Positions 1,693 to 19,773 of a DNA stretch of 64,000 nucleotides are shown here, one piece after another (positions within the stretch are counted from its first letter, which is position 1; each line of letters starts with the position of its first letter). Source of the stretch: an uncultured Acidobacteriota bacterium (lineage in GTDB: Bacteria > Acidobacteriota > UBA6911 > RPQK01 > JAPXNP01). Below the pieces are notes generated by a model. That model was not told the origin of the DNA, searched no databases, and worked only from the letters and a program-made list of their open reading frames with translations. Where the stretch lies: assembly GCA_963777605.1 (NCBI GenBank), contig CAVZRV010000031.1, positions 32,001-96,000 on the forward strand, read 5' to 3'. A program made the position numbers and the translations under genes.

Positions 1693-3738
1693 ATGAGAGC
1701 ATCCTGGCCTACCATCATTCTTTGCCTCACTTGCCTGCTTGTCGGCTGTTCGGACACTACCGGCGTGCCAGATTCTTCGAGTCCTTCGGGCCGCCGGCAG
1801 GAGTTTGGGCAACCGCCAGCCGGCAGCGAAGTCGAGTACGCTGACCCGACCCGACCGGCAACCAAGTGGGCACTGCTAGTGGGGATTAACGAATATCGTT
1901 ATCCTTCCCGGGTGTCTTCCCTGGCCGGCTGCGTCAACGACGTTGAGCTGATGAAGAGCGTGTTGATCGGGAAGTACGAGTACCCTGAAAGCCAAGTCCT
2001 GGTACTAACCAATGAGGCCGCTACCCACCAGGGGATTCTCCATGCATTCAGGGACCACCTGATTCGCAACGCCCAGCGCGATGACGTAGTCATTTTTCAT
2101 TACAGCGGTCACGGTTCGCAAATGCGAGACACTTCCGGGGACGAACTGGACGGCTGGGACGAGACGCTGGTCCCCCATGACAGCCGGGATCCGGAAGGTA
2201 AGGTTTTCGATATCAGCGACGACGAACTCAACACGCTTTTCCTCGAGCTCCAGCAGCGCACGCGAAATATCACGTTCATACTCGACAGCTGCAACTCGGG
2301 TACGGCTCTTCGAGCCGCAGGAAACGTCCGGAGGATCGCCCCTGACGAACGCACGCCGCCGGCTGAGCCTGGCGATTCCGGAACGCGGGGCGTCAGTGAA
2401 GGGTCCAACGATTGGAGGCCGGACAATCTCAACTACACTCTGATTTCGGGATGCCTTGCCGGAGAAAGTTCCTTTGAGCACTGGGCTGACAACCGGGAGC
2501 ACGGTGCCCTAACCTACTTCCTGGCCAGCCAGTTACGACAGGCAAGTCCCCAAAGTACCTACCGCGATGTCATGGATGCGGTCAGTGGAAAGGTCAACGC
2601 CCGCTATCCCGCTCAGCACCCTCAATTGGAGGGCGCGGGCTCGGACAAGGTCATTTTCGGGGACACTACCGTCCTGGCGAGACCCTTTGTCCTCTGCTCT
2701 CCACGGAGCCAGGGCACGGTTGAACTTCAGGCCGGCCAGGCATACGGAGCGACCATTGGCTCGGTTTTTGAGATCTTTGCCCCCGGCACGAAAGACTTCG
2801 GCAACACGGATAATCCCCTTGGCAGGTGCCAGGTGACACAGGTCGGGAATTTTAGTTCCGTCGCGAAACTGTCTACTCCGGTCACCATCCCGAACTTCTC
2901 CCGGGCGGTTGAATGGGATCACAGCTACCCGGAGTTTCGCCTGCGGGTCCATCTCCAGGGACTGGGGAACTCGCCGGCGCTGCGGGGAGTCCGGGAGGAA
3001 CTGGAGCAGTATCACCACCTCGAGTTCCAGCTGCAGCCCCGTGACTACCACGTACTGTTGCGCCAGGCCGGTGCTGAAATTGTCATGGAAGGGGGAGACC
3101 AGACGGAAATTGCACCCCGTACTCCCATCGACGACGCCGATGCTGTGGGGCTCGTGGTCCGCCGAACCCTGGATTGGGCCAAGTGGTTCAATATTCTATC
3201 GATTGCAAACCCGTCTCCGGGTCTCGATGTTCGATTGTCGGTTTCGGAGGCGGAGGGGGACGGAGGACGGGGGACCCCACTCCGCCGGATCGGGGCTCCG
3301 ACGCTCGTGCTGCAAGACGGTCAAGCGTTCGAGTGCAAGGTCGAAAACCGGTCGGACAAGGGCGTCTATCTTTCGATCCTGGATCTGTCCACGGACGGCA
3401 GCGTATCGATGGTGTATCCCCAATCGGGCACCGCCGACTTGCTGGTCCCAAACGGTGTCTGGCAGCGGCGCCTGAACACCTTTGTGCCAGATGGTCGGAG
3501 CTCCGTCAGGGATGTACTGAAAGTGTTCGCGACAACGAGCCCGGTGGACTTCCGATTCCTGCAACGGGACCCAGTGCGAGGGGGAGTCGCGCCGGAGGAG
3601 TTGAGCCGAAGCCTCGGGACGCCCTTGCGACAGCTGATTTCGTCGGTCGCCCTCGGCACGACCCGGAACGTGTCTTCCCCGGTTCCCTTGGGGGACTGGA
3701 GCACTTCCGAGCAGGTGATTGAAGTCAGGCGCGAGTAA
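1693..3738 (+). CDS. Lipoprotein caspase (Peptidase C14 family) with C-terminal DUF4384-like domain
   Basis: Lipobox LLVGC; WALLVGINEY, LAGCVND, HYSGHGSQ (His), LDSCNSG (Cys), GALTYFL, QHPQLEG; C-terminal VYLSILDLSTDGSVSMVYP...LKVFAT; GGAGG RBS. Confidence 0.88.
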   Translation: MRASWPTIILCLTCLLVGCSDTTGVPDSSSPSGRRQEFGQPPAGSEVEYADPTRPATKWALLVGINEYRYPSRVSSLAGCVNDVELMKSVLIGKYEYPESQVLVLTNEAATHQGILHAFRDHLIRNAQRDDVVIFHYSGHGSQMRDTSGDELDGWDETLVPHDSRDPEGKVFDISDDELNTLFLELQQRTRNITFILDSCNSGTALRAAGNVRRIAPDERTPPAEPGDSGTRGVSEGSNDWRPDNLNYTLISGCLAGESSFEHWADNREHGALTYFLASQLRQASPQSTYRDVMDAVSGKVNARYPAQHPQLEGAGSDKVIFGDTTVLARPFVLCSPRSQGTVELQAGQAYGATIGSVFEIFAPGTKDFGNTDNPLGRCQVTQVGNFSSVAKLSTPVTIPNFSRAVEWDHSYPEFRLRVHLQGLGNSPALRGVREELEQYHHLEFQLQPRDYHVLLRQAGAEIVMEGGDQTEIAPRTPIDDADAVGLVVRRTLDWAKWFNILSIANPSPGLDVRLSVSEAEGDGGRGTPLRRIGAPTLVLQDGQAFECKVENRSDKGVYLSILDLSTDGSVSMVYPQSGTADLLVPNGVWQRRLNTFVPDGRSSVRDVLKVFATTSPVDFRFLQRDPVRGGVAPEELSRSLGTPLRQLISSVALGTTRNVSSPVPLGDWSTSEQVIEVRRE

Positions 3739-3885
3739 GCTGATCCCGATGGTGGCCAGGTATGAGATTTTGACGCAGTCGAAAATCGACCCTCTGGGAG
3801 TCTATTTCAAGCGAAAGGCCAAGATGAATTCTGTCATTTCTGGCGTATCCGGGAATTCGCCGACTAAATCGAGGGAGGGCCCAGC

Positions 3886-5931
3886 ATGTCGCTGATCCGA
3901 CTCACAGCCGCATTCACTCTAGTCGCTCTACTGGTCAGCTGCCAGACCACCGACGTTCGGGATCGCGGAGTCGTGCTCAAGCCCGAACCACTTGAGATCA
4001 GCGATTTCGGCACCTTCCGCGCCCTAATCATCGGCATCAACGGTTACAAGCATTGGCCGGTCCTCCAGTTTGCGGAATCGGACGCGCGAGACATCCGGGA
4101 GATATTGATCTCCAGCTACGGTTTCCAGCCTGAGAACGTACTGTCTCTCATCGGGTCGGAGGCGACGGAGAGCCGCATCCTGAACTCACTGAAAAGCCTG
4201 CTGAACCAGGCCACCGGGCAGGACAACATCCTCGTGTATTACGCAGGACACGGTCAACTGGATCCGCTGACTGACACGGGCAACTGGATACCGGTCGACG
4301 GAGAGCTTTACGACGAGTCCTCCTGGATTCCATTTTCCGTCGTTCGAACTCTCGTCACGGCCGAAAAGGTGAAGGCGGGAAGGATCCTGATCATTACCGA
4401 TTCCTGTTACGGTGGAGCGCTGGCTCGCTCCGGGCCGACTCCGGGAAAGCTCAATCCCGAGGACTCCGGTTATATCGAGTCATTGAAGAAAGTGCTTGGC
4501 AAGAAGAGCCGCCAGACCATAGCGTCCGGCGGGTTCGAGCAGGTTCCAGACCGAAGCCATTTTGCTGAGCTGCTGAAGGGCGCCCTCCGAATGAACCCGT
4601 ATCCGGTGATTGACATGGAGTTCATCTTCTACACCGAAGTGTTTCCCCATCTCAGGCTCATCGGGACTCAGTACCCGACTATGGTTCGCATGGTGAACGG
4701 GCCGGAGGAGAACGGACAATTCATTCTCGTCAAGGACGGCGCGACCCTGGATGCGCTGAACAGCGAAGAGGGGGAAACGGACGACAGACCCGATCAGACC
4801 CCGAAAGAGCCGGACGCCAAGACCCAGGCGGACATGGAGTTCTGGAATGAGATCAAGGACTCTTCGGACCCTGAGTTTCTGCAGGAGTACCTCCGTCAGT
4901 TCCCGGACGGGATCTTTGCCCTGATTGCCCAGAAACGCCTGGACGACTTGATTTCACCCGATCAGCCGAGCTTGAGGGTTCCCAAGCTTGTGGGGATGAA
5001 CGTCAAAAGCGCGCTGGACATCCTGGTTGGACTGGGGTTCAAAGAAGGCCGCATCACCACCGAGAACAGCGGAGCGAGCGACGGCACGGTACTTACGCAG
5101 GACCCGGCTCCCGAGTCCCCTGCTGCCGATGGCGCATTGATCAATCTGGTCGTGGCCAAAGCGTCGGAAAAACTCAGAATGCCCCAACTCATCGGCTCCA
5201 GCCGCGCCAAAGTGGCAGACGCACTCGCCAAGTACGGACTGCTCATTGGAAAAGTAGCGTACGTCAGTCCGAAGGAGGCCGGAGTAAAGGAAGCGGGCAT
5301 CGTGGTGAAGCAGTCTCCTGAGCAGGGAATACCGGTCGAACCGAAGACGTCGGTCGACCTCGTTTTCACTCAGTGGGAGTTGACTGTGCCGGACCTGGCC
5401 GATATGCCTGAAGAGCGGGCGGTCGCGCTGATCCAGAAATCCGGCCTGACGGTCGGCGAGATCAAGCGGGTCCAGAAAGGCGAGGTCGGCAAAGTCATCG
5501 GCCAGTCACCCAGGGCCGGAACTCCGGTTGAGCCCGGCGCTGAAATCCTGCTCTATATAGCTTCGGCGTCCCCAGGCAAGTCTCTCGAAGCCATTGCGAA
5601 GTCGAGAAATATCGTCGCCCGGACTCTGAACCCCAGCTTGGCTGCCCCTGGCCTCAACAGCCCATCCAATGGGCAAGTGTTCGGTCACTATCCCCGCAAG
5701 ACTGAATTGAGCTGGAACCCGGTTGGAGGGGCGGTGAGCTATGTTGTTGAAGCCGAGTTTCAATCGGGCTCGGTCTGGCAGCCTCTCTTCACACAGGACG
5801 GCGTCGGGTCTACTCGATACACCTTCAACTTCATCGGAGCCCAGCCAGGTCGATGGAGGGTTTGGGCGATCGACTCGCATGGAAAAGCAGGACAAAGATC
5901 CGGTTGGTGGAGTTTCCGATACACCCGTTAG
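3886..5931 (+). CDS. Lipoprotein caspase with three PASTA domains and C-terminal FN3-like domain
   Basis: Lipobox LLVSC; ALIIGINGY, YYAGHG (His), TDSCYGG (Cys); helical FWNEIK..YLRQFPDG motif; PASTA repeats VPKLVGM..QDPAP, MPQLIG..QSPEQG, VPDLAD..QSPRAG; LSWNPV..SY..RWRVWA. Confidence 0.88.
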   Translation: MSLIRLTAAFTLVALLVSCQTTDVRDRGVVLKPEPLEISDFGTFRALIIGINGYKHWPVLQFAESDARDIREILISSYGFQPENVLSLIGSEATESRILNSLKSLLNQATGQDNILVYYAGHGQLDPLTDTGNWIPVDGELYDESSWIPFSVVRTLVTAEKVKAGRILIITDSCYGGALARSGPTPGKLNPEDSGYIESLKKVLGKKSRQTIASGGFEQVPDRSHFAELLKGALRMNPYPVIDMEFIFYTEVFPHLRLIGTQYPTMVRMVNGPEENGQFILVKDGATLDALNSEEGETDDRPDQTPKEPDAKTQADMEFWNEIKDSSDPEFLQEYLRQFPDGIFALIAQKRLDDLISPDQPSLRVPKLVGMNVKSALDILVGLGFKEGRITTENSGASDGTVLTQDPAPESPAADGALINLVVAKASEKLRMPQLIGSSRAKVADALAKYGLLIGKVAYVSPKEAGVKEAGIVVKQSPEQGIPVEPKTSVDLVFTQWELTVPDLADMPEERAVALIQKSGLTVGEIKRVQKGEVGKVIGQSPRAGTPVEPGAEILLYIASASPGKSLEAIAKSRNIVARTLNPSLAAPGLNSPSNGQVFGHYPRKTELSWNPVGGAVSYVVEAEFQSGSVWQPLFTQDGVGSTRYTFNFIGAQPGRWRVWAIDSHGKAGQRSGWWSFRYTR

Positions 5932-7738: not shown

Positions 7739-7748
7739 AAAGGCTGGA

Positions 7749-8453
7749 ATGCTGGAGCGACTCCGCCGACCCTTCTTCATCGCCTCCCTCGTCTGCCTGG
7801 TTCTGACGCTCCTGGTGGAACTTGGTTCCTCTGCCCTGCTCGGCCAGGGTGGCTTCGCCGAGCAACTCGATCTGCCGACGCCCGGATATGGAGTCCCCTA
7901 CCTGGCGTTACTTGACGGGCTCCTGCTTCTGACCGTTTCCCTGATCGCACTTGCCCTCTTGCTGCCCGAGCGGGTTCACGGCCGAACCCAGGGAATCGTG
8001 ACTCTTGTTGCCTCTATTCTGATTCTATTCGGTGGGATCAAGGCTGCCATCTCGGCCTTAATCGGCCTGATCCTGATGGTGAGTCTGTTCCTGGCTCCGA
8101 TCTTCGGAACCATCGCCTACATGGCCATGTATTCCCATTTTGACCGTTCGGGAGCGGCCATTGCGTTGAGCATGGCCATGTTCCTGAAGATCCTCTTCGC
8201 CATCCTCCTCGTACTCGGACACCAGCGGTTCCTGGAAAACAAGAGCTTGGTCCTGGTCACGTTGACATCACTCATCGCGACCTGGCTGACTGGTTTTCTT
8301 CACGCCTTCCCGCCAGGAATCCTCGTCAGCATCACCGACGCCCTCGCAGGGCTGATCGTTGCAATCCTCGCGATTATCTGGGCGATTCTCTATCTTCTGT
8401 TCTCGATCTTCTCGGTCATCCGCGTGCTTCGAGTGGATCGAGCGACGGGCTGA
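7749..8453 (+). CDS. Polytopic membrane protein of unknown function
   Basis: ATG at 7749 (MLERLRRPFF), 10 nt after the upstream stop; ~6-7 hydrophobic helices. Confidence 0.75.
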   Translation: MLERLRRPFFIASLVCLVLTLLVELGSSALLGQGGFAEQLDLPTPGYGVPYLALLDGLLLLTVSLIALALLLPERVHGRTQGIVTLVASILILFGGIKAAISALIGLILMVSLFLAPIFGTIAYMAMYSHFDRSGAAIALSMAMFLKILFAILLVLGHQRFLENKSLVLVTLTSLIATWLTGFLHAFPPGILVSITDALAGLIVAILAIIWAILYLLFSIFSVIRVLRVDRATG

Positions 8454-9019: not shown

Positions 9020-10021
9020 CTATTGATTTGGCGGCAGCGGGGTGATGTGTTGAAGCAGTTCATTATCTCGAACGAGGTTCCGGTGATTCTCAAGGATCGC
9101 GATATCAGCCCGGGAGAAGACCGCATTCCACCGACGGTCCCGTTTGTTGCACAGCCAAACGGCGACTTCGGAACCCTCCAGCACTCGAGAATCGGGGGCC
9201 GGATCCTGCTTTCCAACCTTTCCGACGAGGGCATTATCGGTCGTCGATACCTTGTCCACGCCGCCGAGCTTCAATCCCCTGCTCTGCAGCGCTGCCACAG
9301 CCTGCTCCAGACTCGACCGCGCCAGATCTGGCACGAGTTTCGCGTCCGCCTCGAGAACCAGCTCCACTCTCGACTGCTTTTCTACTTCAGTACCGGCCTG
9401 GGGCTCCATGCGAAGCACTGTTCCTGGAGCCGGAGGGAAGCTCTCCACTCCCTGGGGCAATTGGTCTGCCGAGGCCGTGAGCTCGCGTCCTGACTCAGAT
9501 GGGCTCAGATCTACGTCCGTCAGTGCTTGCATAGCCTGGTCGACGGGCAGACCGACCACATTCGGGATCTCCACTGCGGAGCCGCTCAGAATGAGCCACA
9601 ATGTTACTCCGCCTCCCACCAGGAGGATCGCCGCAGCGACAGCGATCAATGGCCACCACTTGAAGCCCTCGGGGGCGGGCGCCTTTGGAACTTGAAAGGC
9701 GATCATTTGCCCTTCGTCAAACTCATCGTTGGGCCGTTGAAAGGAGGCTACCACAGGTCGCAGGGTGTAGGTCCCTTCCACGGTACCGGAAGGAACCTGA
9801 ATCTGAACGGTAAAGGAATGGGTCTCGTCAACCCCAAAGTCCTTTTCCGTTTCACCGATAACGGTCAGCCAGTCTTTATGGGTCTCCCCAAGAGCATTGA
9901 GCCAGACCTGCCCACGGATCGGGCGGCCACTCACGTTGGTTACGGTCAACGTGACCTCGCCGTGTCCGCCCAGCAGGACCCCCGGATCCTTGGCCGTAAT
10001 ACTGAAAAATCTTGCAGCCAT
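9020..10021 (-). CDS. Bitopic protein: N-terminal Ig-like domain, single TM, two PASTA domains
   Basis: No signal peptide; beta-rich LTVTNVSGRP..GTYTLRP domain; TM WWPLIAVAAAILLVGGGVTLWLIL; PASTA repeats IPNVVGL..MEPQAG and VPDLARS..QDPAP. Confidence 0.82.
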   Translation of the reverse strand: MAARFFSITAKDPGVLLGGHGEVTLTVTNVSGRPIRGQVWLNALGETHKDWLTVIGETEKDFGVDETHSFTVQIQVPSGTVEGTYTLRPVVASFQRPNDEFDEGQMIAFQVPKAPAPEGFKWWPLIAVAAAILLVGGGVTLWLILSGSAVEIPNVVGLPVDQAMQALTDVDLSPSESGRELTASADQLPQGVESFPPAPGTVLRMEPQAGTEVEKQSRVELVLEADAKLVPDLARSSLEQAVAALQSRGLKLGGVDKVSTTDNALVGKVGKQDPAPDSRVLEGSEVAVWLCNKRDRRWNAVFSRADIAILENHRNLVRDNELLQHITPLPPNQ

Positions 10022-10213
10022 GTGTCACTTCCTCTCGTTCAACTGGTGCCCTTGCTCCCGAGTTCCCGGCCGGGGCACTCAGTTCGATGTCGTAATGTTC
10101 GAAGTCTGGGCGATCCCAGACCCACTGCTCACTTGTTTCGCTCGTTCCGTCATGGACGCCGGCTTTCCAGGCGAACTGGACCGGGATCCTTAATCTTCGT
10201 CAACCCGGAATCC

Positions 10214-10759
10214 TCAAGCGAAGTTCAGATCGTAGGTAACATGAGCGGGCTTCTCCATCTCGATGATGCGCTGGATAAGCCTGCGATGAGTTTCAGCTTC
10301 AGCCGGGGCCTCGATCCGAACATGAAATGGAATGACCCATCCCTGCGCATCACAGATCGTTTCATCGATCCGGAAGCCCTTTATTCCGGTCGCAATCTCC
10401 AGGAATCGAACGATGCCGTCTCGAGTCCCCTGCTCACGGGCGAGGCTCGCCGACGCCGCCACGAGTTCCCTCAGTCGTCCGATCCCCGAAGAAATCGGTT
10501 CCGACGAATTCCCCCAGTCTGACCGGTCTTGAGACGCTTGATCCAGGACCCAACTGAGATCGACCCACTGAGCCAGGTATTCCACCATCCGGTCCGAGGT
10601 GGTCACAGGATTGAAGTGGGCCGCAAGATCGCTCAGAATCGCTTCCGAGGGAGCATGCAATGCCTCCATGATGTCCAACACTCCGGCGAGTGGGGATCCC
10701 TCTCGCAACGTCCGGCGAATGATCTCGGGCAGCAGGGCTGCAATCTCATTCCGGTTCAT
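10214..10759 (-). CDS. CIS baseplate wedge protein (P2 gpI-like)
   Basis: LLPEIIR, YLAQWV, GTRDGI and EKPAHV motifs; follows baseplate J; alternative GTG start at 10765. Confidence 0.85.
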   Translation of the reverse strand: MNRNEIAALLPEIIRRTLREGSPLAGVLDIMEALHAPSEAILSDLAAHFNPVTTSDRMVEYLAQWVDLSWVLDQASQDRSDWGNSSEPISSGIGRLRELVAASASLAREQGTRDGIVRFLEIATGIKGFRIDETICDAQGWVIPFHVRIEAPAEAETHRRLIQRIIEMEKPAHVTYDLNFA

Positions 10760-13322
10760 GTTCACTCACCGTCTCGATTTCGTGCTCTCCTGAGCAAAAG
10801 AGCCAGGTTTCGGGCAGCGTTACCGTTTCCAGAAACTCGCGCCTGGAGGAAGATTCGTAGCTGAGGCCTCCATTGTCAGATCGATGAACACCCTCGCTCG
10901 TACCGGTCATCAAGAACCGATGGTCAACATCGGAGGCCAGTGATCTGATCGAATGGTACTTCCCCACCTCACGCATCGGGAGACCGCAGCCGACTTTCGG
11001 CGGCTGCCACTTGGGCTCGTGAGAGGCCGGCTCGATCTTGAAGACTCCGGCCTGGTCCGTCGCCGCGAACAACACCTCGCCTTGAAAAGCCAGTGCCCAG
11101 CAGGTTCCTCCCTGCCATCCCTCACTGAAGAACTGCCCTTCCAACTGAATCTGGGAGCCCCGGAGCTCCCACCGGTAGCAGCCCTTTCCCTCCGCTTTCC
11201 CGGGAACTGCAATGCCGGCCCACAAATAGCGAAGGGGACCAACTTCCTGAACCTCGAGCACCCTGACATCTTCTCCTTCCAGGCCAATCCGCGTGAAACT
11301 GCCGGCCTTCGCTCCTTGAGTGGAGAGAAAGACACCAACAACGCCTCGCCCCGCGACCGCAACCGACACCTCCCCCTGGGCATCTGACGACGACGCCACT
11401 GCGTAGAATCCCAGATCCTGGTTGCCAGGCTCGACCAGAATCTGGAGGGGGACTGCCTCCGGCTTCATCGCAAGTTCATAAAGCCCGACGTCCGTGGCCA
11501 GGATCAGGATCGGCTCTCCTTCCCTATTGATCCAGTCCATGTCAAAGACGGTGAAACCCGTTTGAGCGGCCCTGCGCCACGTCTCACCACAGTCAGATGA
11601 GACGTGGACCCGTGAAGCCCCCGGCTCTGACTCCACTGCCGAGGTCACGGCCAGCAACCCGGGCCGGGACCGATGGACCTTAACCTGACGCAAATCCTCT
11701 CCGGGGAACCTGCCTGCCGTTTCCCACCCGTTACCGTCGTCCAGCGACCGGAATAGAACAGAGCCGGCAGCCGCATACCAGGCACCCCTCTGGAAGGTAT
11801 CCGCGGCGATCGAGGTCACGTCCCTTTCGGGCACCTCGTCGACGAGAAGTCGAACCTGATCGGCGTAGCTCACGCCCGAGTCGGAAAGCAGGAGGTCATA
11901 AACGTGGGATGCCCGCAAGGGATAACCGAACCTCCAGCCAGCAGATCGCTCCGAGGGGAGTGGATTGATGGCCGAATGGAGCCGGTCCAGGACCCGGGTC
12001 CTCACCGCCTCAGGCGATTCCCCCATGTGAACAACAACCCGCGCTTTGATGCGAACCTGCTTGTAGCGAACCCAGTTCACCAGGCAGGTGGTTCCCAGGG
12101 GTCGCCTGCGATCCAACTCTCCCTGAATTCTCTCCCTTTCGGTTTCCGTCTGGTGCTCGGACAACGTATCCAGCGACACCCGTTCCCCGCTCCGGGCCGC
12201 CTCAAGAACATTCGGAACCAGCAAAACCTCCACAGTCCCCGGCGCCGCGTGGACCCAGAGAGCAGCCTTTGTAAACGCCTTGGCGCGGGCTACGGCCCCG
12301 GAAGCCCGCAGGGCAGCCAACTCATAGTCTCGACCGGTCACTGCCCGGCTGAGTGACCTCAACTCCTGGGGCCCTCTGATTAGGGCGTTCTCCAGGCTTT
12401 CTGTGTTCCTTCCGCCGGTGGCCGGAGTAGGATTGACCACACTGATACCGGGAAGGGGATCGCGAAGGACTGTGAGGAGCCCGGCGCTTACATTACCCTC
12501 GGCTCCGCCTCCATGACGATACCACAATCTGATTTCCCGTTCCGCCGGAGGAACCTCGGCCAGGAGACTCGACGAATCGGCCAGCATCTGACCGGAGGCG
12601 GACATCCGGGCAGATGGTGCGAAGACGATGCTTCCAGTGAAGCGGTCGGCCAAATAGACAAAGCGCTCCCGTTCAATGTCGGTAAAACTGCCGACCTCTC
12701 GCCAGATCCGGAAGGCCTTTCCCTGGAATTCGACGGCCCTGGCCCGGCCGTCCAAGGCTGTGCGATCCGTTTCGACGCCGACCATGAGGTCCAAATCATC
12801 TCCCGTTGGAGAGATCAACGGAGAATGGGAGGTGTACACCCTTTGGCCGGCCAGCCCAGTTCCTCGACCCGCGAGTTCTCCTTCGACCAGTTCGCAGTGA
12901 CAGGCGAGGACATCTACTCCCGAGGCTTCGGGAGTAAGGGTTGCGGACGCGGTCGTCGCAAAGGAGACAATCTTCTGGGCACTGCCTCCCCTGGCCATGG
13001 TTACCCGGGTTCCCCGGGGGACCTCGAGGGATGCCGTCCCGGGGCGACTGCGACTGAATCGGAGCATAACCTGGGCGGCCGAAGGCGGCATCAATTGAAC
13101 TCCCATCAAGCGCAGAAATTCGATGAATGCCTTCTCTGGAAGCCGGTTCAGGCGGTAGATCATCGCTTCAGTGAGATAGGCGAAGAGCTCGAGCAGGACC
13201 ATGCCGGGATCGCTGGGAGAGAAGTCGGTCCATTCCGAGGTCTGTTGTGGAATCCGACTGCGTGCCTCCTCCAGGAGTTGCCGAAAATCACGATCATCGA
13301 GGTTTGGCGGAGTCAGAGACAT
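10746..13322 (-). CDS. CIS baseplate J/gp6-like protein with inserted Asp-box beta-propeller
   Basis: PNLDDRDF..WTDFSPSDPGMVLLELFA..RLNRLPEK; GGGAEGNV, ATGGRNTES, RAVTGRDYE; Asp-box-like SLDDGNGW, SSDCGETW, SDNGGLSY; terminal LFCSGEH. Confidence 0.9.
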   Translation of the reverse strand: MSLTPPNLDDRDFRQLLEEARSRIPQQTSEWTDFSPSDPGMVLLELFAYLTEAMIYRLNRLPEKAFIEFLRLMGVQLMPPSAAQVMLRFSRSRPGTASLEVPRGTRVTMARGGSAQKIVSFATTASATLTPEASGVDVLACHCELVEGELAGRGTGLAGQRVYTSHSPLISPTGDDLDLMVGVETDRTALDGRARAVEFQGKAFRIWREVGSFTDIERERFVYLADRFTGSIVFAPSARMSASGQMLADSSSLLAEVPPAEREIRLWYRHGGGAEGNVSAGLLTVLRDPLPGISVVNPTPATGGRNTESLENALIRGPQELRSLSRAVTGRDYELAALRASGAVARAKAFTKAALWVHAAPGTVEVLLVPNVLEAARSGERVSLDTLSEHQTETERERIQGELDRRRPLGTTCLVNWVRYKQVRIKARVVVHMGESPEAVRTRVLDRLHSAINPLPSERSAGWRFGYPLRASHVYDLLLSDSGVSYADQVRLLVDEVPERDVTSIAADTFQRGAWYAAAGSVLFRSLDDGNGWETAGRFPGEDLRQVKVHRSRPGLLAVTSAVESEPGASRVHVSSDCGETWRRAAQTGFTVFDMDWINREGEPILILATDVGLYELAMKPEAVPLQILVEPGNQDLGFYAVASSSDAQGEVSVAVAGRGVVGVFLSTQGAKAGSFTRIGLEGEDVRVLEVQEVGPLRYLWAGIAVPGKAEGKGCYRWELRGSQIQLEGQFFSEGWQGGTCWALAFQGEVLFAATDQAGVFKIEPASHEPKWQPPKVGCGLPMREVGKYHSIRSLASDVDHRFLMTGTSEGVHRSDNGGLSYESSSRREFLETVTLPETWLFCSGEHEIETVSEHEPE

Positions 13323-13753
13323 CAGGAGGCCTCTCCGGACAGGTTGAAGGGAAATGAAAGTCGGGCCCTCTCCAGCGTTTTACGCACCCGGTACTCCAGA
13401 AGAATGTCGAGTCTGCCCGGGTCCGACTTGTTCGGTTCAGCATCCAGAAAGAGGATCTCGATCCGGGGTTCCCACCGGACCAGGCACTGTCGGACATAAT
13501 GAATCGCAAGACCGGCAGTCGTTTGATCGTTAGGCGAAAACTGGAGCCGGGCCAGTTCGCACCCGTACTGGGGGCGCATCACCCGCTCACCGGGGCGCGT
13601 GGAGAGCAGGAGGAAAATGGCCTGTCGCACTGAGGCCTGATCCTCAACCATCCCGATTCCTCCCGTTGGGGAGATGCGAATACCTGCATCGCTTTCCGGA
13701 ACATCGAGGTCAGGGAGATCGAATCGCCACGCCCGATATCTTGGAACCGTCAT
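13322..13753 (-). CDS. gp25/GpW baseplate-sheath initiator
   Basis: VRQAIFLLLSTRPGERVMRPQYGC...RWEPRI. Confidence 0.93.
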   Translation of the reverse strand: MTVPRYRAWRFDLPDLDVPESDAGIRISPTGGIGMVEDQASVRQAIFLLLSTRPGERVMRPQYGCELARLQFSPNDQTTAGLAIHYVRQCLVRWEPRIEILFLDAEPNKSDPGRLDILLEYRVRKTLERARLSFPFNLSGEAS

Positions 13754-14094
13754 TCCGTCCCCTCCCCCACAAGGTCCTGTCCCGGGTTTCTCACTTTGTA
13801 ATCAACCGTTCCCGGCGGAGTCCCGTCGGTCAGCCCGCGCACGCTCTCCAGGCAAACCTTGCGGCTGTCAATCCGAAGGAGATCCGAGTAGCCCACTCGG
13901 ACCTTCAGGGTCACCTGGCATGGCTTGATTCCGATCCCGACGTTTGGACAGCCCTTGATCTCTTTCCTTTCGGGATCGGCTTCGACCAGCACTCTGCGGT
14001 CCTCGACCGTAACCAGGTCCTGCGTGGGCGGCACCTCAATGTTGCCCAATTCGTGCAGGCAGACGAGAATTGCGTCTTCGGTCAGCCAGTTCAA
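13750..14094 (-). CDS. PAAR-like (DUF4280-type) spike tip protein
   Basis: CLH..GCP..KPC metal-ligand pattern; lies between VgrG-like gene and gp25; TTG start abuts the upstream stop. Confidence 0.7.
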   Translation of the reverse strand: MNWLTEDAILVCLHELGNIEVPPTQDLVTVEDRRVLVEADPERKEIKGCPNVGIGIKPCQVTLKVRVGYSDLLRIDSRKVCLESVRGLTDGTPPGTVDYKVRNPGQDLVGEGTE

Positions 14095-15615
14095 TCATGC
14101 CCTCCGAAAATCAATGTTGCTCCCTCGAATCACAATCGGGTTTCCAGGTGCCCGGATCTCGAGACCGGTCATGGCGTGCAAAAGCACCTTCTCGGGGGTC
14201 AGTTCCACAAAGCTGCCCTGGCTATTCTCGAGGCGAATGCGGGACCCGGAGTCGTCCAGGGTAATCTTCTGACCAGCTGGCGTCTGCAAGGTATACCTGC
14301 GGACTCGGCCGTCCTCGAGGCCCCAGTCGGGAACGGACTTGACTCCGAACAGGCCTCCAAGGACAACCCCCTGGCTGAGATCCTCACGGGCAAACAGCAC
14401 CAGCACCTGATCGTCCAGGTCGGGCAATGCCACCAGCCCTTTGCCAGCTCCGGCCCCGACTGTGACCACCCCCAGCCAGTTCGTCTCGATTCCCCCGAGC
14501 GATGGCAGGACCGCCTGGATCCGTCCCAGACCTTCGGGATCATCAACACTCGTCACAACCCCAACGGTTACGATGGGGCCTCGAGCGCGTTGCGAGAACG
14601 GTGCAACCGCGGTCGACAACTCCGACAGGTGACCTCGGGCGGCGTCAACTGTGTGGGTCACCTCGGTCACGACATAGTCTCCATCCAGAGAAGCGCCCAG
14701 CCCATCGACCTCGGCAACCACCCCGGGCTCCAGATCGGAATTGCCCGCAGCTATTCCCCAGAGCACAACTTCGTTGGCGATGCGGATGTCGAGTTCGGCC
14801 TGAGCCGTCGCATCGGCCAGGGCGTCATCGGTCCAGACATCGTTCAAAATCAGGCGCTCTCCGGTTCCCCCGAGCCGGCCAGGCGAGACTTCGCGCGAGA
14901 TCCGGCGACCGTTACGACCCGCCTCCGCCTCGCCGCGACGTTCTTCAACCCGACCCAGATCCCAACCGAGTGATGCGACACTTCTGCATGAAGGATCACC
15001 GTTGATCTCTACTCGCGCTTCAAGGAGCGTGGTTCCGACCGAGAGCGGCACCCGCTGATCACGTCCGGCGAGACTGAAGAGCTGCACTGAAGGCCCATCG
15101 AGGAAGAAGAACAAACCGGCACGCTCACAGGATTCTCGCAACAACTCCAAATCCGTCTGTCCCCACTGCGCCAGGCGATTCCAGACCGGCCCGGTTTCCC
15201 CGGCCTCGATGGAAAGACCCAGGTCCCCGACCAGTTCGCGGGCCAGCCCCTCACAATTCAGCGAAGTGAAAACTCGGGTCGGCTGGCGCTTCTGGAGCCG
15301 ATGGAGCAGGTCATAAGCTCGAATCGTCATCAGATGTCCGCCCGCACTTTCAAAAACGTGTTCAACCGCGGTGATCTCGCCTTCAAAAATGGAGCCGGAA
15401 AGACCTTCGGCCTCAACCCGCAATTTGGATCCTGGTTCCACCGGACTCGCCGGTTCTCCTCGATTGGGTGGATCCAGAAAGGTCAGTATGCAAAGTGCAG
15501 GCATCGAAAGGCGCTGCTGAACCCGGACCGCACCGAGATTGCCGTGCCGCACTGGATCGGTCGCAGTGCCATCGATTTCGACAATGATCGAGGGCACGGA
15601 TGCCGAATGCGCCAT
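14095..15615 (-). CDS. VgrG-like hub-spike (gp27-gp5 / baseplate V)
   Basis: IFEGEITAVE, QWGQTDLELL, VTEVTH, GVVTSVDDPEGLGRI, LPDLDDQVLV (OB fold), short beta-repeat tail. Confidence 0.9.
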   Translation of the reverse strand: MAHSASVPSIIVEIDGTATDPVRHGNLGAVRVQQRLSMPALCILTFLDPPNRGEPASPVEPGSKLRVEAEGLSGSIFEGEITAVEHVFESAGGHLMTIRAYDLLHRLQKRQPTRVFTSLNCEGLARELVGDLGLSIEAGETGPVWNRLAQWGQTDLELLRESCERAGLFFFLDGPSVQLFSLAGRDQRVPLSVGTTLLEARVEINGDPSCRSVASLGWDLGRVEERRGEAEAGRNGRRISREVSPGRLGGTGERLILNDVWTDDALADATAQAELDIRIANEVVLWGIAAGNSDLEPGVVAEVDGLGASLDGDYVVTEVTHTVDAARGHLSELSTAVAPFSQRARGPIVTVGVVTSVDDPEGLGRIQAVLPSLGGIETNWLGVVTVGAGAGKGLVALPDLDDQVLVLFAREDLSQGVVLGGLFGVKSVPDWGLEDGRVRRYTLQTPAGQKITLDDSGSRIRLENSQGSFVELTPEKVLLHAMTGLEIRAPGNPIVIRGSNIDFRRA

Positions 15616-15618
15616 TCG

Positions 15619-16359
15619 CTAGCTCCTTTCCCCGTGGATCGATGGGATTCTGAGCAGAGCGCCCGACGCGATTCGGAGCGGATCCTCCACGTTATTGGCC
15701 CACGCGATCAGCCTCCAGAACACCGGACTTCCATAGCGGCGAAACGCGATGTCCGACAGACTCTCGCTGGCTCTTCCTCCATCCGGATCCGTGCCCCCGA
15801 TCACCTCGAAAACCCCGTCCGTGTCCTGCGGTTCGCCCGAAACGGACTCAGTTGATAAAGCAGCAGGCAGGCTTTCGGGAGCGTTCTGCGCCTCTTTGAA
15901 CATCTCCGGAACGCGGACGAGTCTCATCCGCAGCCAGGATCTTCTGGGCGATCCGACCGAATCGAACTGCTCGAACCGCTCCGAGACTGCGGTAATAACG
16001 CCGGGAATGTTCCAGATTTTGCCCCAGACGAACCGAACGACTGGAGGCCTGGCTGAAGATCCGTCGGAGGCGCTGTTTTCGGCCAGCTGCCAAAGGGGGG
16101 CCGTCAGATTCCGAACGTTTTCGGTCTGAATGGATGAACCGGACAGCGTCGTGTCGAAGAGCAGGTCCAACGTCAACTCCGTGGTTCCTCCTCCGGTGAA
16201 CACCAGGGGATCGTCGGATAGTCCTCCGCCGGACACCCGGCCATTCAGCGATTTTCGGGCCTGAACACCGGCCAGTCGCCGCACCACGAGCGAGTCCGGG
16301 TTGAGGAGACACCGGATGCGTTCCCCGGTTTCCTCGACGAGAAGGGCTACCCGTTCCAT
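15619..16359 (-). CDS. CIS tube initiator (Afp7-like) with C-terminal LysM-like domain
   Basis: LNPDSL, LTLDLLFDT, PPVVRFVWG, FDSVGSPRR; SLSDIAFRRYGSPVFWRLIAWAN..DP..G..LRIP. Confidence 0.87.
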   Translation of the reverse strand: MERVALLVEETGERIRCLLNPDSLVVRRLAGVQARKSLNGRVSGGGLSDDPLVFTGGGTTELTLDLLFDTTLSGSSIQTENVRNLTAPLWQLAENSASDGSSARPPVVRFVWGKIWNIPGVITAVSERFEQFDSVGSPRRSWLRMRLVRVPEMFKEAQNAPESLPAALSTESVSGEPQDTDGVFEVIGGTDPDGGRASESLSDIAFRRYGSPVFWRLIAWANNVEDPLRIASGALLRIPSIHGERS

Positions 16360-17390
16360 CGTCTACCTTCCTGTTCCCGACTGAGCCGCCTCTTTCGCTT
16401 TTCGTCCTGCTCCCCCGATTGGATCTCAGCGTACCAGTCCCCGCCCGGGTCAAGGAGGGACGGCCACGGATCATCCGGTGGCAGTGGGAACTGACCCGGC
16501 CGGACATCCGCAATCGGCTGACTGAGGTTCAGCTGACTTGCTCCATCTGGTGAAAGCACAAACGCGGCAGTGCTCAGCGGCTCGAACGGCGCTGGAAACA
16601 CGCCGGCTCCCGGTAAGGTTGCGACGGCCTGCTCCGTAACGTTCCGGCCGGGCACCGTCGCGCCCGGGTCCCGGCGGTCACCTCCCCCATGCGGAGGAAG
16701 AACCCTGGCGCGGTTCCCGTTGAGTCGGTTTTCCGCGATCGCTGCTTTCTGGTTCTGGGGGCAGGTAAAGGGTAGCTCCCGTGAAACTGGTTTGGCAATC
16801 GAATGGCGTACTCCTCCGGGACCCGCAACGGAAGCAGGTTCGGAAGCGGAACTCTCCTCAGACAATCGACCCTCGACCAGACGATTCCGGGTTACAGATA
16901 CGCCTTCTTTTCTCCGCTGGAAAGCCGTTTCCTTCCGATCTGTCGACCCGTCCGAATCTGACGGTTCAACCGGAGGAACGAACGCTGAGCCGGAGTCCCG
17001 CGATTCAAGCGCCCGGTGGCTCACAACCGCGGGTTGGAAAACGGGCTGAGGTCGGCCTTCCCGATCAGTCCGAATCCCTTTGACGCGGCGAGACCTTACC
17101 CCAGGCTTTCTTCCCTGACCCCAGTGGACCCACTTCAGCTCCCCGGCCTTTATGGATTTGCCGGCACCGTACTCGGAACGTTCCCGGATGTGCTCCAGCC
17201 AGTGCGGCGGGGGCTCGGGATAGCTCGCCAGAAAAGCCCGTTCGAGCCAATCCGGCGCCACAGACGGGCGGTGAGGAGACATTGGCGGTCTGCGGTCGAA
17301 CCCGAGTTTTCCTGCCAGCACGTTGCTCCAGGCGATGACTATGCGAAGCAATCTGAGAAAGAGTCTTCTTGCCAGATCGAGCAGCATCAT
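16347..17390 (-). CDS. Low-complexity hypothetical protein inside the CIS operon
   Basis: 347 aa ORF fills the gap between tube and initiator with coupled junctions; amphipathic N-terminus, Pro/Ser/Arg-rich middle. Confidence 0.6.
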   Translation of the reverse strand: MMLLDLARRLFLRLLRIVIAWSNVLAGKLGFDRRPPMSPHRPSVAPDWLERAFLASYPEPPPHWLEHIRERSEYGAGKSIKAGELKWVHWGQGRKPGVRSRRVKGIRTDREGRPQPVFQPAVVSHRALESRDSGSAFVPPVEPSDSDGSTDRKETAFQRRKEGVSVTRNRLVEGRLSEESSASEPASVAGPGGVRHSIAKPVSRELPFTCPQNQKAAIAENRLNGNRARVLPPHGGGDRRDPGATVPGRNVTEQAVATLPGAGVFPAPFEPLSTAAFVLSPDGASQLNLSQPIADVRPGQFPLPPDDPWPSLLDPGGDWYAEIQSGEQDEKRKRRLSREQEGRRWNG

Positions 17391-17393
17391 CCG

Positions 17394-17876
17394 TTAGCCT
17401 CGATCCAGAGATTCGAATACCAACGTGATTGACTCAATGGCGGCTTCATTCGTCAAGGCATCCAGCGGAGCTCCACACCATTCGGCAGGCCAGGCATTAA
17501 TCAAGTTCCAACGGAGCATCTCGGTCACCCCATCAGCATCGAGCATCACAATCGAGACATTCCGGCGTTCGACCCGACCCTGAACGGCGGTCAAAAACCA
17601 CTCCCACAGGTCGGTTGATGTCGTCAGACCGTATCGCAGGGTGATGTCCCCATAATCAACCTGGCCCGGCAGCCTGCGGACCACCTGGCTGGTCCCACCC
17701 TCACGATAACGAATGGCATCGACACTGATACGCATACCGCTGCAGGCAGTGAAATGACCCTCGGTCACACCCTGGACTTCGAGTTTGAAATTGTAAGCGC
17801 GGAAGGGATCCACCCAACCACCTGTCTGAGCGCCTGTTTCTGTCTCCTGAGGCGGGGTTTCGGCAGGTTCCGGCAT
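17394..17876 (-). CDS. CIS inner tube protein (T4 gp19-like)
   Basis: DPFRAYNFKLE, YREGG, LPG..DITLRYG, WNLINAWP, IESITL. Confidence 0.95.
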   Translation of the reverse strand: MPEPAETPPQETETGAQTGGWVDPFRAYNFKLEVQGVTEGHFTACSGMRISVDAIRYREGGTSQVVRRLPGQVDYGDITLRYGLTTSTDLWEWFLTAVQGRVERRNVSIVMLDADGVTEMLRWNLINAWPAEWCGAPLDALTNEAAIESITLVFESLDRG

Positions 17877-17888
17877 GGTTCATCTCCT

Positions 17889-19082
17889 TTATTCGGTTTC
17901 GATTTCGGCACCGGAGGCACTCTGGCCAATCCGGAAAACGATAAATTCAGCAGGTTTTACGGGGGCCATTCCGATCAGAATGACGACGCGGCCAGCGTCG
18001 ATCGATTCCGGGGGATTGGTCTCTTCGTCGCATTTGACGAAAAATGCCTCTTCTGGAGTGCGCCCCATCAAGGCACCGTCCCTCCAGATATTGGTGAGAA
18101 AGGCGCTCACATCACGCCGGATCTTCTTCCACAGGGTCTGATCGTTCGGCTCGAAAACGATCCACCGGGTACTGTTCGCGATTGACTCCTCGACCATGCT
18201 GAACAGTCGGCGGACGTTTAGATACGTCCACTCGCTCCCCTGCTCGGCCAGAGTCCGGGCTCCCCAAACCAGGATCCCGTCACGGGGAAACAGGCGGATA
18301 CAGTTGACTCCGTGCTGGTTCAGTTCTCCCTGTTCCTCTCGGGTCAACCGGTACGTCACGTTCAGGGCGCCACGAATTCTCTCGTTCGCGGGAGCCTTGT
18401 GAACGCCGCGAGTGGCGTCCGACCGAGCATAGATCCCGGCCAGGTGGCCCGATGGGGCTATATCCACAAAGTCATTCGGCGGCAGCGGATCCCTCACGGT
18501 AATTCTCGGAAAGTAGACCGCCCCCCAGGGGGATGCGGGAGGCCTCAGTCCACCAGCGGGCTCTCCCTCTGACTCATCCTCGCCTGGTTTCTTCTTCTTG
18601 GTCGAGACGACGGCAACCTGCGTCAGGAGGTCCAATCTGGGGATTGCTTCCGGGCAGTCAAGGATCGCAAAGCGGTCCTTCATCCCCTCGCAGTGATCGA
18701 GCAATGCGGCGTACGAGGCCGCGTCTGCATAACCTGGTGCCGCCACGATCGCGACCTCATCGATTTCCCTGAGAACGTCGAGCCCGGATCGTTTCGTTCC
18801 CCCTCCGGAAATATCTGTGCAGTTGACCACGAAGCACCGACGTCCGCCATTGGCAAAGAAGCCATAGACCGCCTGGGACAGAGGAGTGCTGGGGCTGCCG
18901 TTCGGCACGTACTCGCCCACGAACTGGGTCCAATTGTTGATCGCAATGGCCTGGTTCACGTGCGCGCCCGCATCCGGGGCTTTTCCTACGAACCCGGCTG
19001 TACTCGTGCCGGTTGGCTGGATCGGACGAGGTCCCATCGAAACTTCTTCAACATAGATGCCCGGTGCAAGGTAGGTCGGCAT
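17889..19082 (-). CDS. CIS contractile sheath protein
   Basis: PTYLAPGIYVEE, FFANGG, PSGHLAGIYARSD..GVHKAPAN, VWGARTL, YLNVRRL, FEPND, PVKPAEF. Confidence 0.96.
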   Translation of the reverse strand: MPTYLAPGIYVEEVSMGPRPIQPTGTSTAGFVGKAPDAGAHVNQAIAINNWTQFVGEYVPNGSPSTPLSQAVYGFFANGGRRCFVVNCTDISGGGTKRSGLDVLREIDEVAIVAAPGYADAASYAALLDHCEGMKDRFAILDCPEAIPRLDLLTQVAVVSTKKKKPGEDESEGEPAGGLRPPASPWGAVYFPRITVRDPLPPNDFVDIAPSGHLAGIYARSDATRGVHKAPANERIRGALNVTYRLTREEQGELNQHGVNCIRLFPRDGILVWGARTLAEQGSEWTYLNVRRLFSMVEESIANSTRWIVFEPNDQTLWKKIRRDVSAFLTNIWRDGALMGRTPEEAFFVKCDEETNPPESIDAGRVVILIGMAPVKPAEFIVFRIGQSASGAEIETE

Positions 19083-19083
19083 G

Positions 19084-19773
19084 TCAATCCTCCATCAATT
19101 GGAATCGAATCAAGAGTGGCCCTTCATCTTTCGTCCAGCCTGGTGACGGATCCACCCGGACCTCTCGCCCCCTGGCCTTGACCTCGATCATTGCCGGAGG
19201 AGGATCCGTTGGAACTTGGGCGAAATGAAATCTGCCCTGTGCGTCGGTCGTCGTGTATTGCCCGGTTCCCGGAATCTCGATCCGAGCCCCCATCACAGGG
19301 ACATCTCCCGGGCCGAGAACTCTTCCAGCCAAAGGCCTGACCGGTGACTGCCTGACTACCAAAGGCTGCAGTACAGGTCTTGACTTCGGCTGACGGCGGA
19401 CCTGCCTGCACGGCACTCCGAGTTTGAAACTCGGCCGGGGAGAGACCCCGAAGCCCGCCCAGACAGCAGGGGAAACCCGGTTCAGGTCAAGCTGGAACTC
19501 GGCCTGCTCCATGGCGGCAAACAGCAACTGTCCCAGCCACTTATGCGCCTCCTCCGGGTCAGTCGACCAGGTGGTGACCAGGTACTGAAGGGAAACCTGG
19601 AGAGGCGGCCGAAGGTTCGTGCGAAGAGGAGGGCTGTCCGACAGTTCGAGCAAGTAAAGACTGACACCCCTGAACTCGCTGCCGGAAGGCCCCGGCTCTG
19701 TCAGAATGACATCCACTCGATCTAAAACAGCCAGGATCCAGTCACGGACCCGCCGATCGATTTCATCGATCAT
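19084..19773 (-). CDS. Pvc16/DUF4255-like terminator cap with C-terminal carboxypeptidase-regulatory-like domain
   Basis: MIDEID..VSLYLLEL..LQYLVTTW..LGQLL; C-terminal GRVLGP..PVMGARIE..TTDAQGRF. Confidence 0.8.
   Translation of the reverse strand: MIDEIDRRVRDWILAVLDRVDVILTEPGPSGSEFRGVSLYLLELSDSPPLRTNLRPPLQVSLQYLVTTWSTDPEEAHKWLGQLLFAAMEQAEFQLDLNRVSPAVWAGFGVSPRPSFKLGVPCRQVRRQPKSRPVLQPLVVRQSPVRPLAGRVLGPGDVPVMGARIEIPGTGQYTTTDAQGRFHFAQVPTDPPPAMIEVKARGREVRVDPSPGWTKDEGPLLIRFQLMED

Follow-up and report, generated by a model that had tools for sequence, protein, structure and literature searches.

A single-pass Ig-like/PASTA protein as a putative membrane adaptor in a contractile injection system lineage with propeller-bearing baseplates

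A window of 64,000 nucleotides from an uncultured Acidobacteriota bacterium (GenBank assembly GCA_963777605.1, contig CAVZRV010000031.1, positions 32,001 to 96,000 of the forward strand) bears an 11-gene contractile injection system (CIS) operon, the last gene of which (9020..10021, minus strand) is the subject of this study. It encodes a protein of 333 residues, referred to here as the target, that is composed of an immunoglobulin (Ig)-like N-terminal domain (N-domain), a transmembrane (TM) helix, two PASTA domains and a C-terminal helical tail. We find that the N-domain gene is a near-constant companion of one CIS lineage, which is marked by a baseplate-J protein bearing a C-terminal propeller. 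We suggest that the target may act as a membrane-spanning adaptor encoded in the slot of a tail fiber gene, with the baseplate docked on the inside and peptidoglycan bound on the outside, a reading to which we assign a probability of about 0.45.

The target combines an Ig-like domain, a single TM helix and a PASTA pair

The target reading frame is open and is the longest one at positions 9020-10021 of the minus strand. A GAGAGGAAG ribosome-binding site precedes its ATG within the 192-bp spacer to the upstream gpI gene (10022..10213, minus strand), and the N-terminus aligns with the family consensus from residue 1; together, these two observations support the start codon. Based on 122 family sequences, AlphaFold2 modeled the protein with a mean pLDDT of 90.7 as a β-sandwich (residues 6–111), a helix (residues 123–145), two PASTA folds (residues 149–224 and 227–292) and short helices toward the C-terminus (residues 304–326).

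The PASTA pair (9146..9577), predicted to be periplasmic, was recognized in two stretches by Pfam PF03793, with an E-value of 2.6e-24 and 85.4 bits compared to a cut-off of 23.2. Its best Foldseek matches are the PASTA domains of PknB, PrkC and PBP2x, and positions 325–497 of the NCBIfam model PknB_PASTA_kin, which represent the juxtamembrane-TM-PASTA part of PASTA kinases, align to target residues 113–293. PADLOC matches of the target (PD-T4-6) are likewise confined to the PASTA part, and a PHROGs search of the protein returned no match. The N-domain (residues 1–118; 9668..10021), which defines the family and is predicted to be a cytoplasmic Ig/PapD-like β-sandwich, has no match in Pfam. The tail (residues 293–333; 9023..9145), with two short helices in the model, is conserved among close homologs only, as judged from the sequences of P0002, P0003 and P0005.

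A hydropathy scan revealed one TM segment of about 23 hydrophobic residues (best window 126–144) and neither an N-terminal hydrophobic segment nor a signal peptide. The TM helix spans residues ~122–147 (9581..9658) and is preceded by a KWW motif, corresponding to FPWW in the family consensus. Two lysines lie before the helix; no lysine or arginine and two acidic residues lie after it. An N-in/PASTA-out topology is thus predicted from sequence, and N-in/C-out would be the expected mode of insertion, given that a signal peptide is lacking and that the 118-residue N-domain is folded. The domain layout put forward in an initial annotation of the window, i.e. a β-rich N-domain without signal peptide followed by one TM and two PASTA domains, is borne out by hydropathy, Pfam and the model. 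As the host genome encodes LpxC, and a photosystem II (PSII) protein was not found in it, we take the host to be a diderm that makes lipopolysaccharide rather than a cyanobacterium.

The N-domain gene accompanies a CIS lineage with a propeller-bearing baseplate J

Ten tightly packed genes on the same strand lie upstream of the target, in the order Pvc16_N-like cap, sheath, gp19-like tube, a 347-residue protein, CIS_tube-type protein, VgrG/gpD, a small protein, gp25, Baseplate_J and Tail_P2_I. The initial annotation placed the target on the strand of the wedge genes and directly after them, where a tail fiber gene would often sit, and this holds: the target follows gpI by 192 bp in a CIS without a fiber gene, as neither a fiber nor an AAA match was obtained among the 50 window proteins scanned, at the thresholds used. 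The gpI-like baseplate wedge protein (Cis12-like; 10214..10765, minus strand) matches Pfam Tail_P2_I and, in profile comparison, chain 9gtp_E of the S. coelicolor CIS (E 1.4e-9). The next gene upstream (10746..13322, minus strand) encodes a baseplate-J-like wedge protein of 858 residues (Pfam Baseplate_J), the C-terminal third of which (residues ~500–858) matches chains of BNR-repeat proteins and xyloglucanases, consistent with a BNR-like propeller. This propeller is lineage-specific; type IId and more distant homologs end near residue 495. Compared to solved structures, the baseplate-J profile matched 9gtp (Cis11; E 5e-99), then AlgoCIS (1e-13) and Anabaena All3317 (2.9e-5). 9GTP is the S. 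coelicolor CIS baseplate according to the data-availability statement of the respective paper and, by sequence, the present baseplate is closest, among solved structures, to the Streptomyces cytoplasmic CIS.

An N-domain-first scan of one genome per species, with a four-sequence alignment as query, yielded 49 loci. The carriers include Acidobacteriota (many Pyrinomonadaceae, Blastocatellia), Verrucomicrobiae, Thermoleophilia/Gaiellaceae/Solirubrobacterales, Chloroflexi, Sphaerotilus, Rhizobacter, Thiotrichaceae, Methylococcaceae, Anaeromyxobacter and a Xenococcaceae cyanobacterium. At 36 of the 49 loci, the same CIS gene order precedes the N-domain gene on its strand, and baseplate J is matched at E-values of 1e-200 to 0. 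One of the remaining loci (L058) has a convergent CIS, four have less than 1.8 kb of upstream DNA, and eight have no CIS within 7.8–10 kb. Searching the genomes of three of these orphan loci (L038, L039 and L040) with baseplate J uncovered the baseplate J of the lineage elsewhere (49–50% identity); the genome of orphan locus L048 gave no baseplate-J match, and that of the short-upstream locus L057 gave only a baseplate-J fragment at a contig end.

The same linkage emerged from the side of the baseplate. Among 401 sampled genomes of the host phylum, a full-length propeller baseplate J occurs only in G000, G014 and G331, which are exactly the genomes with an N-domain; none of the six genomes with more distant baseplate-J types has one. 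Likewise, in a 401-genome sample of Actinomycetota, the full-length propeller baseplate J was found in G428 and G673, the sole two genomes with an N-domain, and the N-domain occurs in none of the 24 genomes with a type IId-like, propeller-less baseplate J (including the unpublished G579). Moreover, a baseplate-first metagenome scan, which is independent of the N-domain, returned 79 loci, of which 42 were parsed (match extending beyond residue ~780) and 28 were informative (complete baseplate-J C-terminus and at least 1100 bp downstream). An N-domain gene follows gpI on the same strand at 27 of these 28 baseplate-first loci; absence from related loci, which the initial annotation had raised as a possible objection, is therefore not what we observe. 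At the sole informative exception, L143, gpI (3505-4035) is directly followed by a six-TM gene (4462-5358; see below). Eight CIS loci of distant lineages in the same metagenome scan have neither an N-domain gene nor a six-TM gene.

At most loci, the N-domain gene also sits close to gpI. Among the 34 loci with gpI and complete N-domain open reading frames (ORFs), the first N-domain gene lies at most 20 bp from the gpI stop or overlaps it in 23 cases, at 21–150 bp in two and farther away in nine, as counted from longest-ORF starts, which favor short gaps. At L025, L028, L029, L033, L034, L042, L061 and L062, 0.6–2 kb separate gpI from the first N-domain gene, into which another gene or a divergent paralog may fit. 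The orphan N-domain genes L038, L039, L040, L044, L047, L049 and L053, with no CIS within 7.8–10 kb, mostly encode PAN_4 or Tectonin ends. G423 and G424 carry a CIS baseplate gene on the same contig as the orphan N-domain gene but more than 200 kb from it, G425 carries one elsewhere in the genome, and the genome with orphan L049 also has the CIS-linked L033 on another contig.

A constant N-domain–TM unit carries exchangeable outer domains

A search with the whole protein returned three relatives besides the target among 8000 scored candidates, and full-length matches were present in two of 41 related genomes, G014 (65% identity) and G020 (39% identity). An apparent 4-bp overlap of the G020 homolog with gpI was rejected, as the family alignment sets the start codon 36 nt later, leaving a 32-nt gap. 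The N-domain alone (residues 1–127) retrieved far more with phmmer: 1291 cluster representatives pass E ≤ 1e-3, of which 530 also pass E ≤ 1e-10. The 150 matches listed are proteins of 119–988 residues, and each of them carries the N-domain at its N-terminus. A TM segment starting at residues 100–190 (median 126) is found in 149 of 153 family proteins, exactly one TM segment in 140 of the 153 and an N-terminal hydrophobic segment in none; the FPWW collar precedes the TM helix in 132 of 153 aligned family sequences. Lysine plus arginine counts average 2.09 on the N-terminal and 1.80 on the C-terminal side of the helix (more on the N-terminal side in 67 proteins, equal in 45 and fewer in 37; n = 149).

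According to Pfam, PASTA domains follow the TM in 72 of 146 family representatives, a set that omits three long proteins (P0116, P0129 and P0142); other C-terminal domains in this set are Laminin_G_3, PKD, Tectonin, B_lectin, CBM96, FGE-sulfatase, PD40, META and thioredoxin. In the genome-locus set of 88 ORFs (94 N-domain ORFs minus eight fragments, i.e. 86, plus two from G331), 34 have PASTA, and F5/8 type C, PAN, Tectonin, PKD, PD40 and DUF346 domains occur in others. At least one PASTA paralog is present at 21 of 35 CIS-linked loci. Pfam recognized no toxin or nuclease domain in any of these 146 + 88 (234) family proteins. Across the representatives, N-domain and TM thus form the constant part; the outer part can be exchanged and is a binding domain in nearly every case. 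The peptidoglycan coupling proposed in the initial annotation therefore does not extend to the family as a rule; about half of the members have PASTA, and lectin-like, PKD, PAN and propeller domains take its place in paralogs. The number of tandem paralogs per locus is one at 11 loci, two at ten, three at nine, four at two and five at two.

A few family proteins have unusual ends. P0010 is an N-domain-TM protein that ends in a ribosomal L7/L12 C-terminal domain, and P0090 and P0120 contain an EF-Tu GTP-binding domain, in P0120 after two PASTA domains. These usually cytoplasmic domains lie on the predicted outer side and could represent gene-call fusions. The unpublished genome G018 gave one weak match to the TM-PASTA part and no match to the N-domain or baseplate J.

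The N-domain may dock on the baseplate periphery

Modeled alone, the N-domain attains a pLDDT of 90.5. Its best fold match is the FixG-related protein 2r39 (Z 10.5, rmsd 2.6, 103 residues aligned); other matches in Foldseek and VIA include macroglobulin domains, a sialidase linker domain (~20% identity), PapD-like pilus chaperones and the ASH domains of CEP192/HYDIN. These matches are near-tied and therefore indicate only the fold class, a generic Ig/PapD-like domain. An N-domain profile found nothing below E 0.35 among PDB sequences.

We predicted a three-chain complex in which the N-domain was the partner of gpI and baseplate-J residues 451–858, using a separate alignment for each chain. The complex scored 0.36 (runs 0.46, 0.36 and 0.36), compared to 0.01 for the best of three controls; at least 80% of contacts are shared between the runs, and the partner has a pLDDT of at least 80. 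In calibration, 58 of 80 solved complexes and two of 110 mismatched pairs reached the mark, but only seven of the 80 solved complexes, and both passing mismatches, did so with a score of 0.60 or below. Replacing the baseplate-J part lowered the score to 0.01, pointing to the propeller region rather than gpI alone, and the predicted propeller contact fits the strict co-occurrence of N-domain and propeller. The modeling thus lends weak support to docking of the N-domain on the baseplate periphery.

A conserved six-TM protein is encoded next to N-domain genes

Convergent with the target, a gene at 7746..8453 (plus strand) encodes a membrane protein with six hydrophobic segments. It has no Pfam, NCBIfam, PHROG or PADLOC match and hit only unnamed integral-membrane clusters in the ESM Atlas, all under 0.9. 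Homologs (E 1e-40 to 1e-67) adjoin the N-domain genes, on either strand, at 25 of the 26 CIS-linked genome loci in which the last N-domain paralog is followed by 1500 bp or more, and they are also present at most metagenome loci. They are absent from the orphan N-domain loci, the two type IId loci described below and distant CIS loci. The conservation of this neighbor suggests a membrane-based module, and we regard the six-TM protein as a candidate membrane partner of the target.

Relation to known CIS accessories and PASTA proteins

Bitopic CIS accessories and a PapD-like/TM protein family are already in print. The CIS of S. coelicolor is cytoplasmic and kills its own cell under stress (PMC10066040). 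Three proteins of this system, Sco4256-4258, were described as "CIS-associated effectors" (Casu et al. 2023, PMC10066040) and as "putative toxin" (Vladimirov et al. 2023, PMC10020575). The first domain of proteins of this type resembles pilus chaperones, and their homologs are found in type IId clusters of actinomycetes, filamentous cyanobacteria and Chloroflexi and are rare elsewhere (PMC10020575). SCO4256 is also listed as a membrane glycoprotein with one TM in the S. coelicolor glycoproteome.

At two type IId loci from large actinobacterial genomes, we found proteins of 448–470 residues encoded beyond the sheath genes on the opposite strand. Their TM lies close to residue 220, between weakly Cep192/PapD-like N-termini and C-termini of the ChW or Ricin_B_lectin type (E 2e-29 for the latter); a search of 23 type IId genomes recovered this Sco4256-like family in 21. 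An hhalign comparison of 16 type IId N-termini with a 65-sequence N-domain alignment gave a probability of 94.4% (E 8.5e-8, 97 columns), and the comparison with a single sequence gave 87% (E 4e-6). The N-domain is thus a remote homolog of the Sco4256-like family, the type IId proteins being equated with Sco4256-4258 by description. The target shares with Sco4256-4258 a PapD/Ig-like N-terminus, one TM and a variable C-terminal binding domain, as well as the occurrence of tandem paralogs and the presence only with a CIS cluster. It differs in having one Ig domain (~118 residues) rather than ~215 residues before the TM, in ending in PASTA rather than ricin or ChW domains and in its diderm host. 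Moreover, the target gene follows gpI on the operon strand, whereas the type IId genes lie near the sheath genes on the other strand.

CisA (SCO4242) is a bitopic membrane adaptor that is required for firing of the S. coelicolor CIS (CIS-Sc) and is encoded directly after the wedge genes (Casu et al. 2025, PMC12237407); its N-in/C-out topology has been demonstrated, and a contact with the baseplate-J homolog Cis11 has been predicted (PMC12237407). Like CisA, the target is a bitopic protein, with a topology that is predicted only, encoded directly after the wedge genes of a related fiber-less CIS. However, CisA consists of a largely disordered N-terminus of 285 residues and a solute-binding-like C-terminal domain, in place of which the target has PASTA. 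Homology to CisA was rejected; the family profile matched the type IId protein in the CisA position (i.e. encoded after gpI), a positional stand-in that has a Zn-ribbon, with a probability of only 0.5%, and an N-domain hidden Markov model matched the same protein at its TM only (E 3.6). The functional analogy to CisA drawn in the initial annotation consequently stands in part: the bitopic layout, the gene slot and a CIS that is closest to a CisA-dependent system agree with it, while the proteins are unrelated and the nearest described relatives of the target fit Sco4256-4258, which have been called effectors or a putative toxin.

In design, the closest analog of the target is Anabaena Cis13 (All3316), the N-domain of which binds the baseplate and which has a TM at residues 122–154, loss of which frees the particles (Weiss et al. 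2022, PMC8894136). Both proteins occupy the fiber slot, and their TM segments occupy similar positions (122–154 vs. ~122–147 in the target). However, Cis13 stops soon after the helix, and its CIS lineage is distant (baseplate J vs. All3317, E 2.9e-5). The target N-domain matched no PDB sequence of Cis13 at E ≤ 10, and no CIS chain is among its best 50 fold matches. The TM-plus-PASTA-repeat module and the predicted topology are those of the PASTA Ser/Thr kinases PknB, PrkC and Stk1, but the target has the Ig-like domain in place of a cytoplasmic kinase and shows no kinase motif or match. Compared to conventional tail fibers of extracellular CIS or phages (Afp13/Pvc13-like), it has no shaft in the model, no Pfam or PHROG fiber match and no fiber-like repeats or knob.

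A possible role in membrane docking

Based on these comparisons, we favor the adaptor role. The target would insert in an N-in/C-out orientation, as PASTA kinases do. Its cytoplasmic Ig-like N-domain would dock on the periphery of the baseplate wedge (via the baseplate-J propeller, via gpI or via both), the TM helix would keep the baseplate against the cytoplasmic membrane, and the two periplasmic PASTA domains could bind peptidoglycan or fragments thereof. As a membrane-spanning "fiber", the protein might set the docking site and possibly the firing time, and paralogs with lectin-like ends may provide other specificities in other genomes. Within this scheme, we infer the topology of the target, its docking, its binding of peptidoglycan and any part it may play in firing. 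We prefer the adaptor because of the receptor-like design, with a cytoplasmic module, a TM and outer PASTA domains, and because of the listing of SCO4256 as a membrane glycoprotein. This notion is further supported by CisA and Cis13, as bitopic proteins encoded in this gene slot that anchor or license CIS at membranes. The position at the operon end, the lineage-specific linkage to the propeller CIS, the pairing of a conserved N-domain with variable binding ends, the conserved six-TM neighbor and, weakly, the complex prediction also speak for it.

Several observations weigh against an adaptor. The nearest described relatives, Sco4256-4258, have been interpreted as effectors; in the triple deletion mutant, 85% of the tubes had an empty lumen and stress-induced death no longer occurred, and the proteins are toxic in E. 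coli (PMC10066040). In a diderm host, the lectin-like ends of the paralogs would be periplasmic, an odd location for glycan-binding domains. The positive-inside bias of the family is mild, one related locus (L143) lacks the N-domain gene, and the 192-bp gap to gpI means that the target could have its own promoter; a scan of this spacer found no sigma-70-like promoter and no terminator-like site. Furthermore, no CIS or phage part is among the best 50 Foldseek or VIA matches of the N-domain, and the complex score falls in a weak band, in which wrong predictions outnumber correct ones unless the assumed contact was probable from the outset.

A related proposal, which we consider possible but doubtful, is that the system is a receptor-gated device, in which membrane-spanning tail fibers dock the cytoplasmic particle on the inner membrane and an outside ligand licenses firing through the envelope of the producer. 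The Ig domain would hold the propeller, the ligands would be muropeptides for PASTA and glycans for the lectin paralogs, and the conserved six-TM protein would be the missing membrane core. In that case, the Sco4256-4258 "effectors" would have been named wrongly and would be receptors or anchors of this type.

The main rival of the adaptor, in our estimate rather unlikely, is that the target is CIS cargo, i.e. an effector with the N-domain as a loading handle, a TM that, once the CIS has fired, would insert into a target membrane or that of the producer itself and PASTA domains that would aim at the cell wall. In favor of cargo, the N-domain is remotely homologous to type IId proteins with Ricin and ChW C-termini that match the description of Sco4256-4258; the above phenotypes of the triple mutant and the E. 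coli toxicity point the same way. In addition, Sco4256 was detected in purified particles, cargo genes are also found at operon ends, and a constant N-terminus with variable C-termini, together with orphan copies, is typical of polymorphic effectors. However, none of the 234 family proteins scanned has a recognized toxin or nuclease domain, their ends being binding domains; no immunity-like small gene was noted, and resident membrane receptors have the same TM-PASTA module. With a strong internal TM and no chaperone gene, such a protein should end up in the membrane of the producer. SCO4256 is on record as a membrane glycoprotein, and overexpression toxicity is presumably common for membrane proteins.

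The fiber-slot position and a turnover of C-terminal glycan-binding domains in tandem arrays reminiscent of receptor-binding proteins would also suit a receptor-binding fiber of a released, extracellular CIS. In this case, the N-domain would attach to the baseplate and the PASTA or lectin ends to the surface of other cells, with the helix serving in oligomerization or membrane contact and PASTA possibly binding exposed peptidoglycan of Gram-positive targets. We regard such a fiber as clearly unlikely, given that the helix is a typical TM (~23 hydrophobic residues with the conserved FPWW collar), that fiber-like repeats or a knob were not seen, that no lysis genes were found among the 50 window proteins scanned and that the nearest solved CIS acts intracellularly. 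Slightly less probable again is that target and six-TM protein form a membrane module for another step, for instance release, breaching of the envelope after firing or assembly, rather than a docking adaptor. The six-TM gene at 25 of the 26 genome loci with room for it, and its retention at L143, where the N-domain gene is missing, are in line with such a module, but it would leave the conserved cytoplasmic Ig domain and the variable outer domains without a function, and the six-TM protein belongs to no known family. Finally, an independent peptidoglycan sensor that merely neighbors the CIS, for which one could invoke the 192-bp gap and the many PASTA proteins without N-domain in relatives, is highly improbable and close to refuted by the linkage counts, with N-domains found only with the propeller CIS lineage in the two 401-genome samples and at 27 of 28 baseplate-first loci.

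The N-domain family bears on how cytoplasmic CIS reach a membrane and what triggers their firing. To our knowledge, only CisA and Anabaena Cis13 are so far known as membrane-finding factors of cytoplasmic CIS. With 1291 cluster representatives across phyla, a fixed baseplate-side module and swappable outer domains, it offers a natural series for studying whether envelope signals gate firing. Its strict co-occurrence with the baseplate-J propeller and the six-TM protein names two candidate partners, and it provides grounds for revisiting the question of whether Sco4256-4258 serve as cargo or as membrane receptors. In the literature, we found no description of the PASTA-bearing single-Ig variant, although the supplementary homolog lists of the 2023 papers (PMC10020575, PMC10066040) may overlap with it, and no work pairing a PASTA domain with contractile injection. 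Nor did we find reports of the fixed place of the N-domain gene after gpI, of its restriction to a propeller-baseplate lineage that spans many phyla and includes diderms, of lectin-type paralogs in tandem arrays or of the conserved six-TM partner.

The remaining CIS genes and other neighbors

The rest of the CIS operon spans 13322..19773 on the minus strand, and its gene order recurs in related loci. It encodes gp25 (13322-13753), a small unnamed protein (13750-14094), the VgrG/gpD spike (14095-15615), a CIS_tube-type protein (15619-16359), an unnamed protein of 347 residues (16347-17390), the gp19-like tube (17394-17876), the sheath (17889-19082) and the Pvc16_N-like cap (19084-19773). All named components were assigned by Pfam; the genes at 13750-14094 and 16347-17390 have no family match in any of Pfam, NCBIfam and PHROGs. 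For a CIS, this operon is unusually compact, with no AAA+ ATPase, second tube gene or recognizable tape-measure family among the scanned window proteins.

On the far side of the six-TM gene, two plus-strand genes encode proteins of 681 residues each (1693-3738 and 3886-5931), both with an N-terminal hydrophobic segment and a caspase domain (Pfam Peptidase_C14) and the second with three PASTA domains in addition. We considered these neighbors as PASTA kinases, but the Pfam assignment as caspase-domain proteins rules this out. Both genes are syntenic in G014; at L060, a PASTA-plus-caspase ORF comes right after the N-domain genes, and L050 has a caspase-like ORF. Given that the nearest solved relative of this CIS mediates cell death, the caspase-like peptidases in its vicinity appear noteworthy. 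Just beyond the start of the CIS operon, a small plus-strand ORF without family match (20292-20639) overlaps the start of a gene encoding HTH_3 and Peptidase_M78 (ImmA/IrrE-like) domains according to Pfam (20632-21729, plus strand); by sequence, the two look like a toxin-antitoxin-like or regulator pair.

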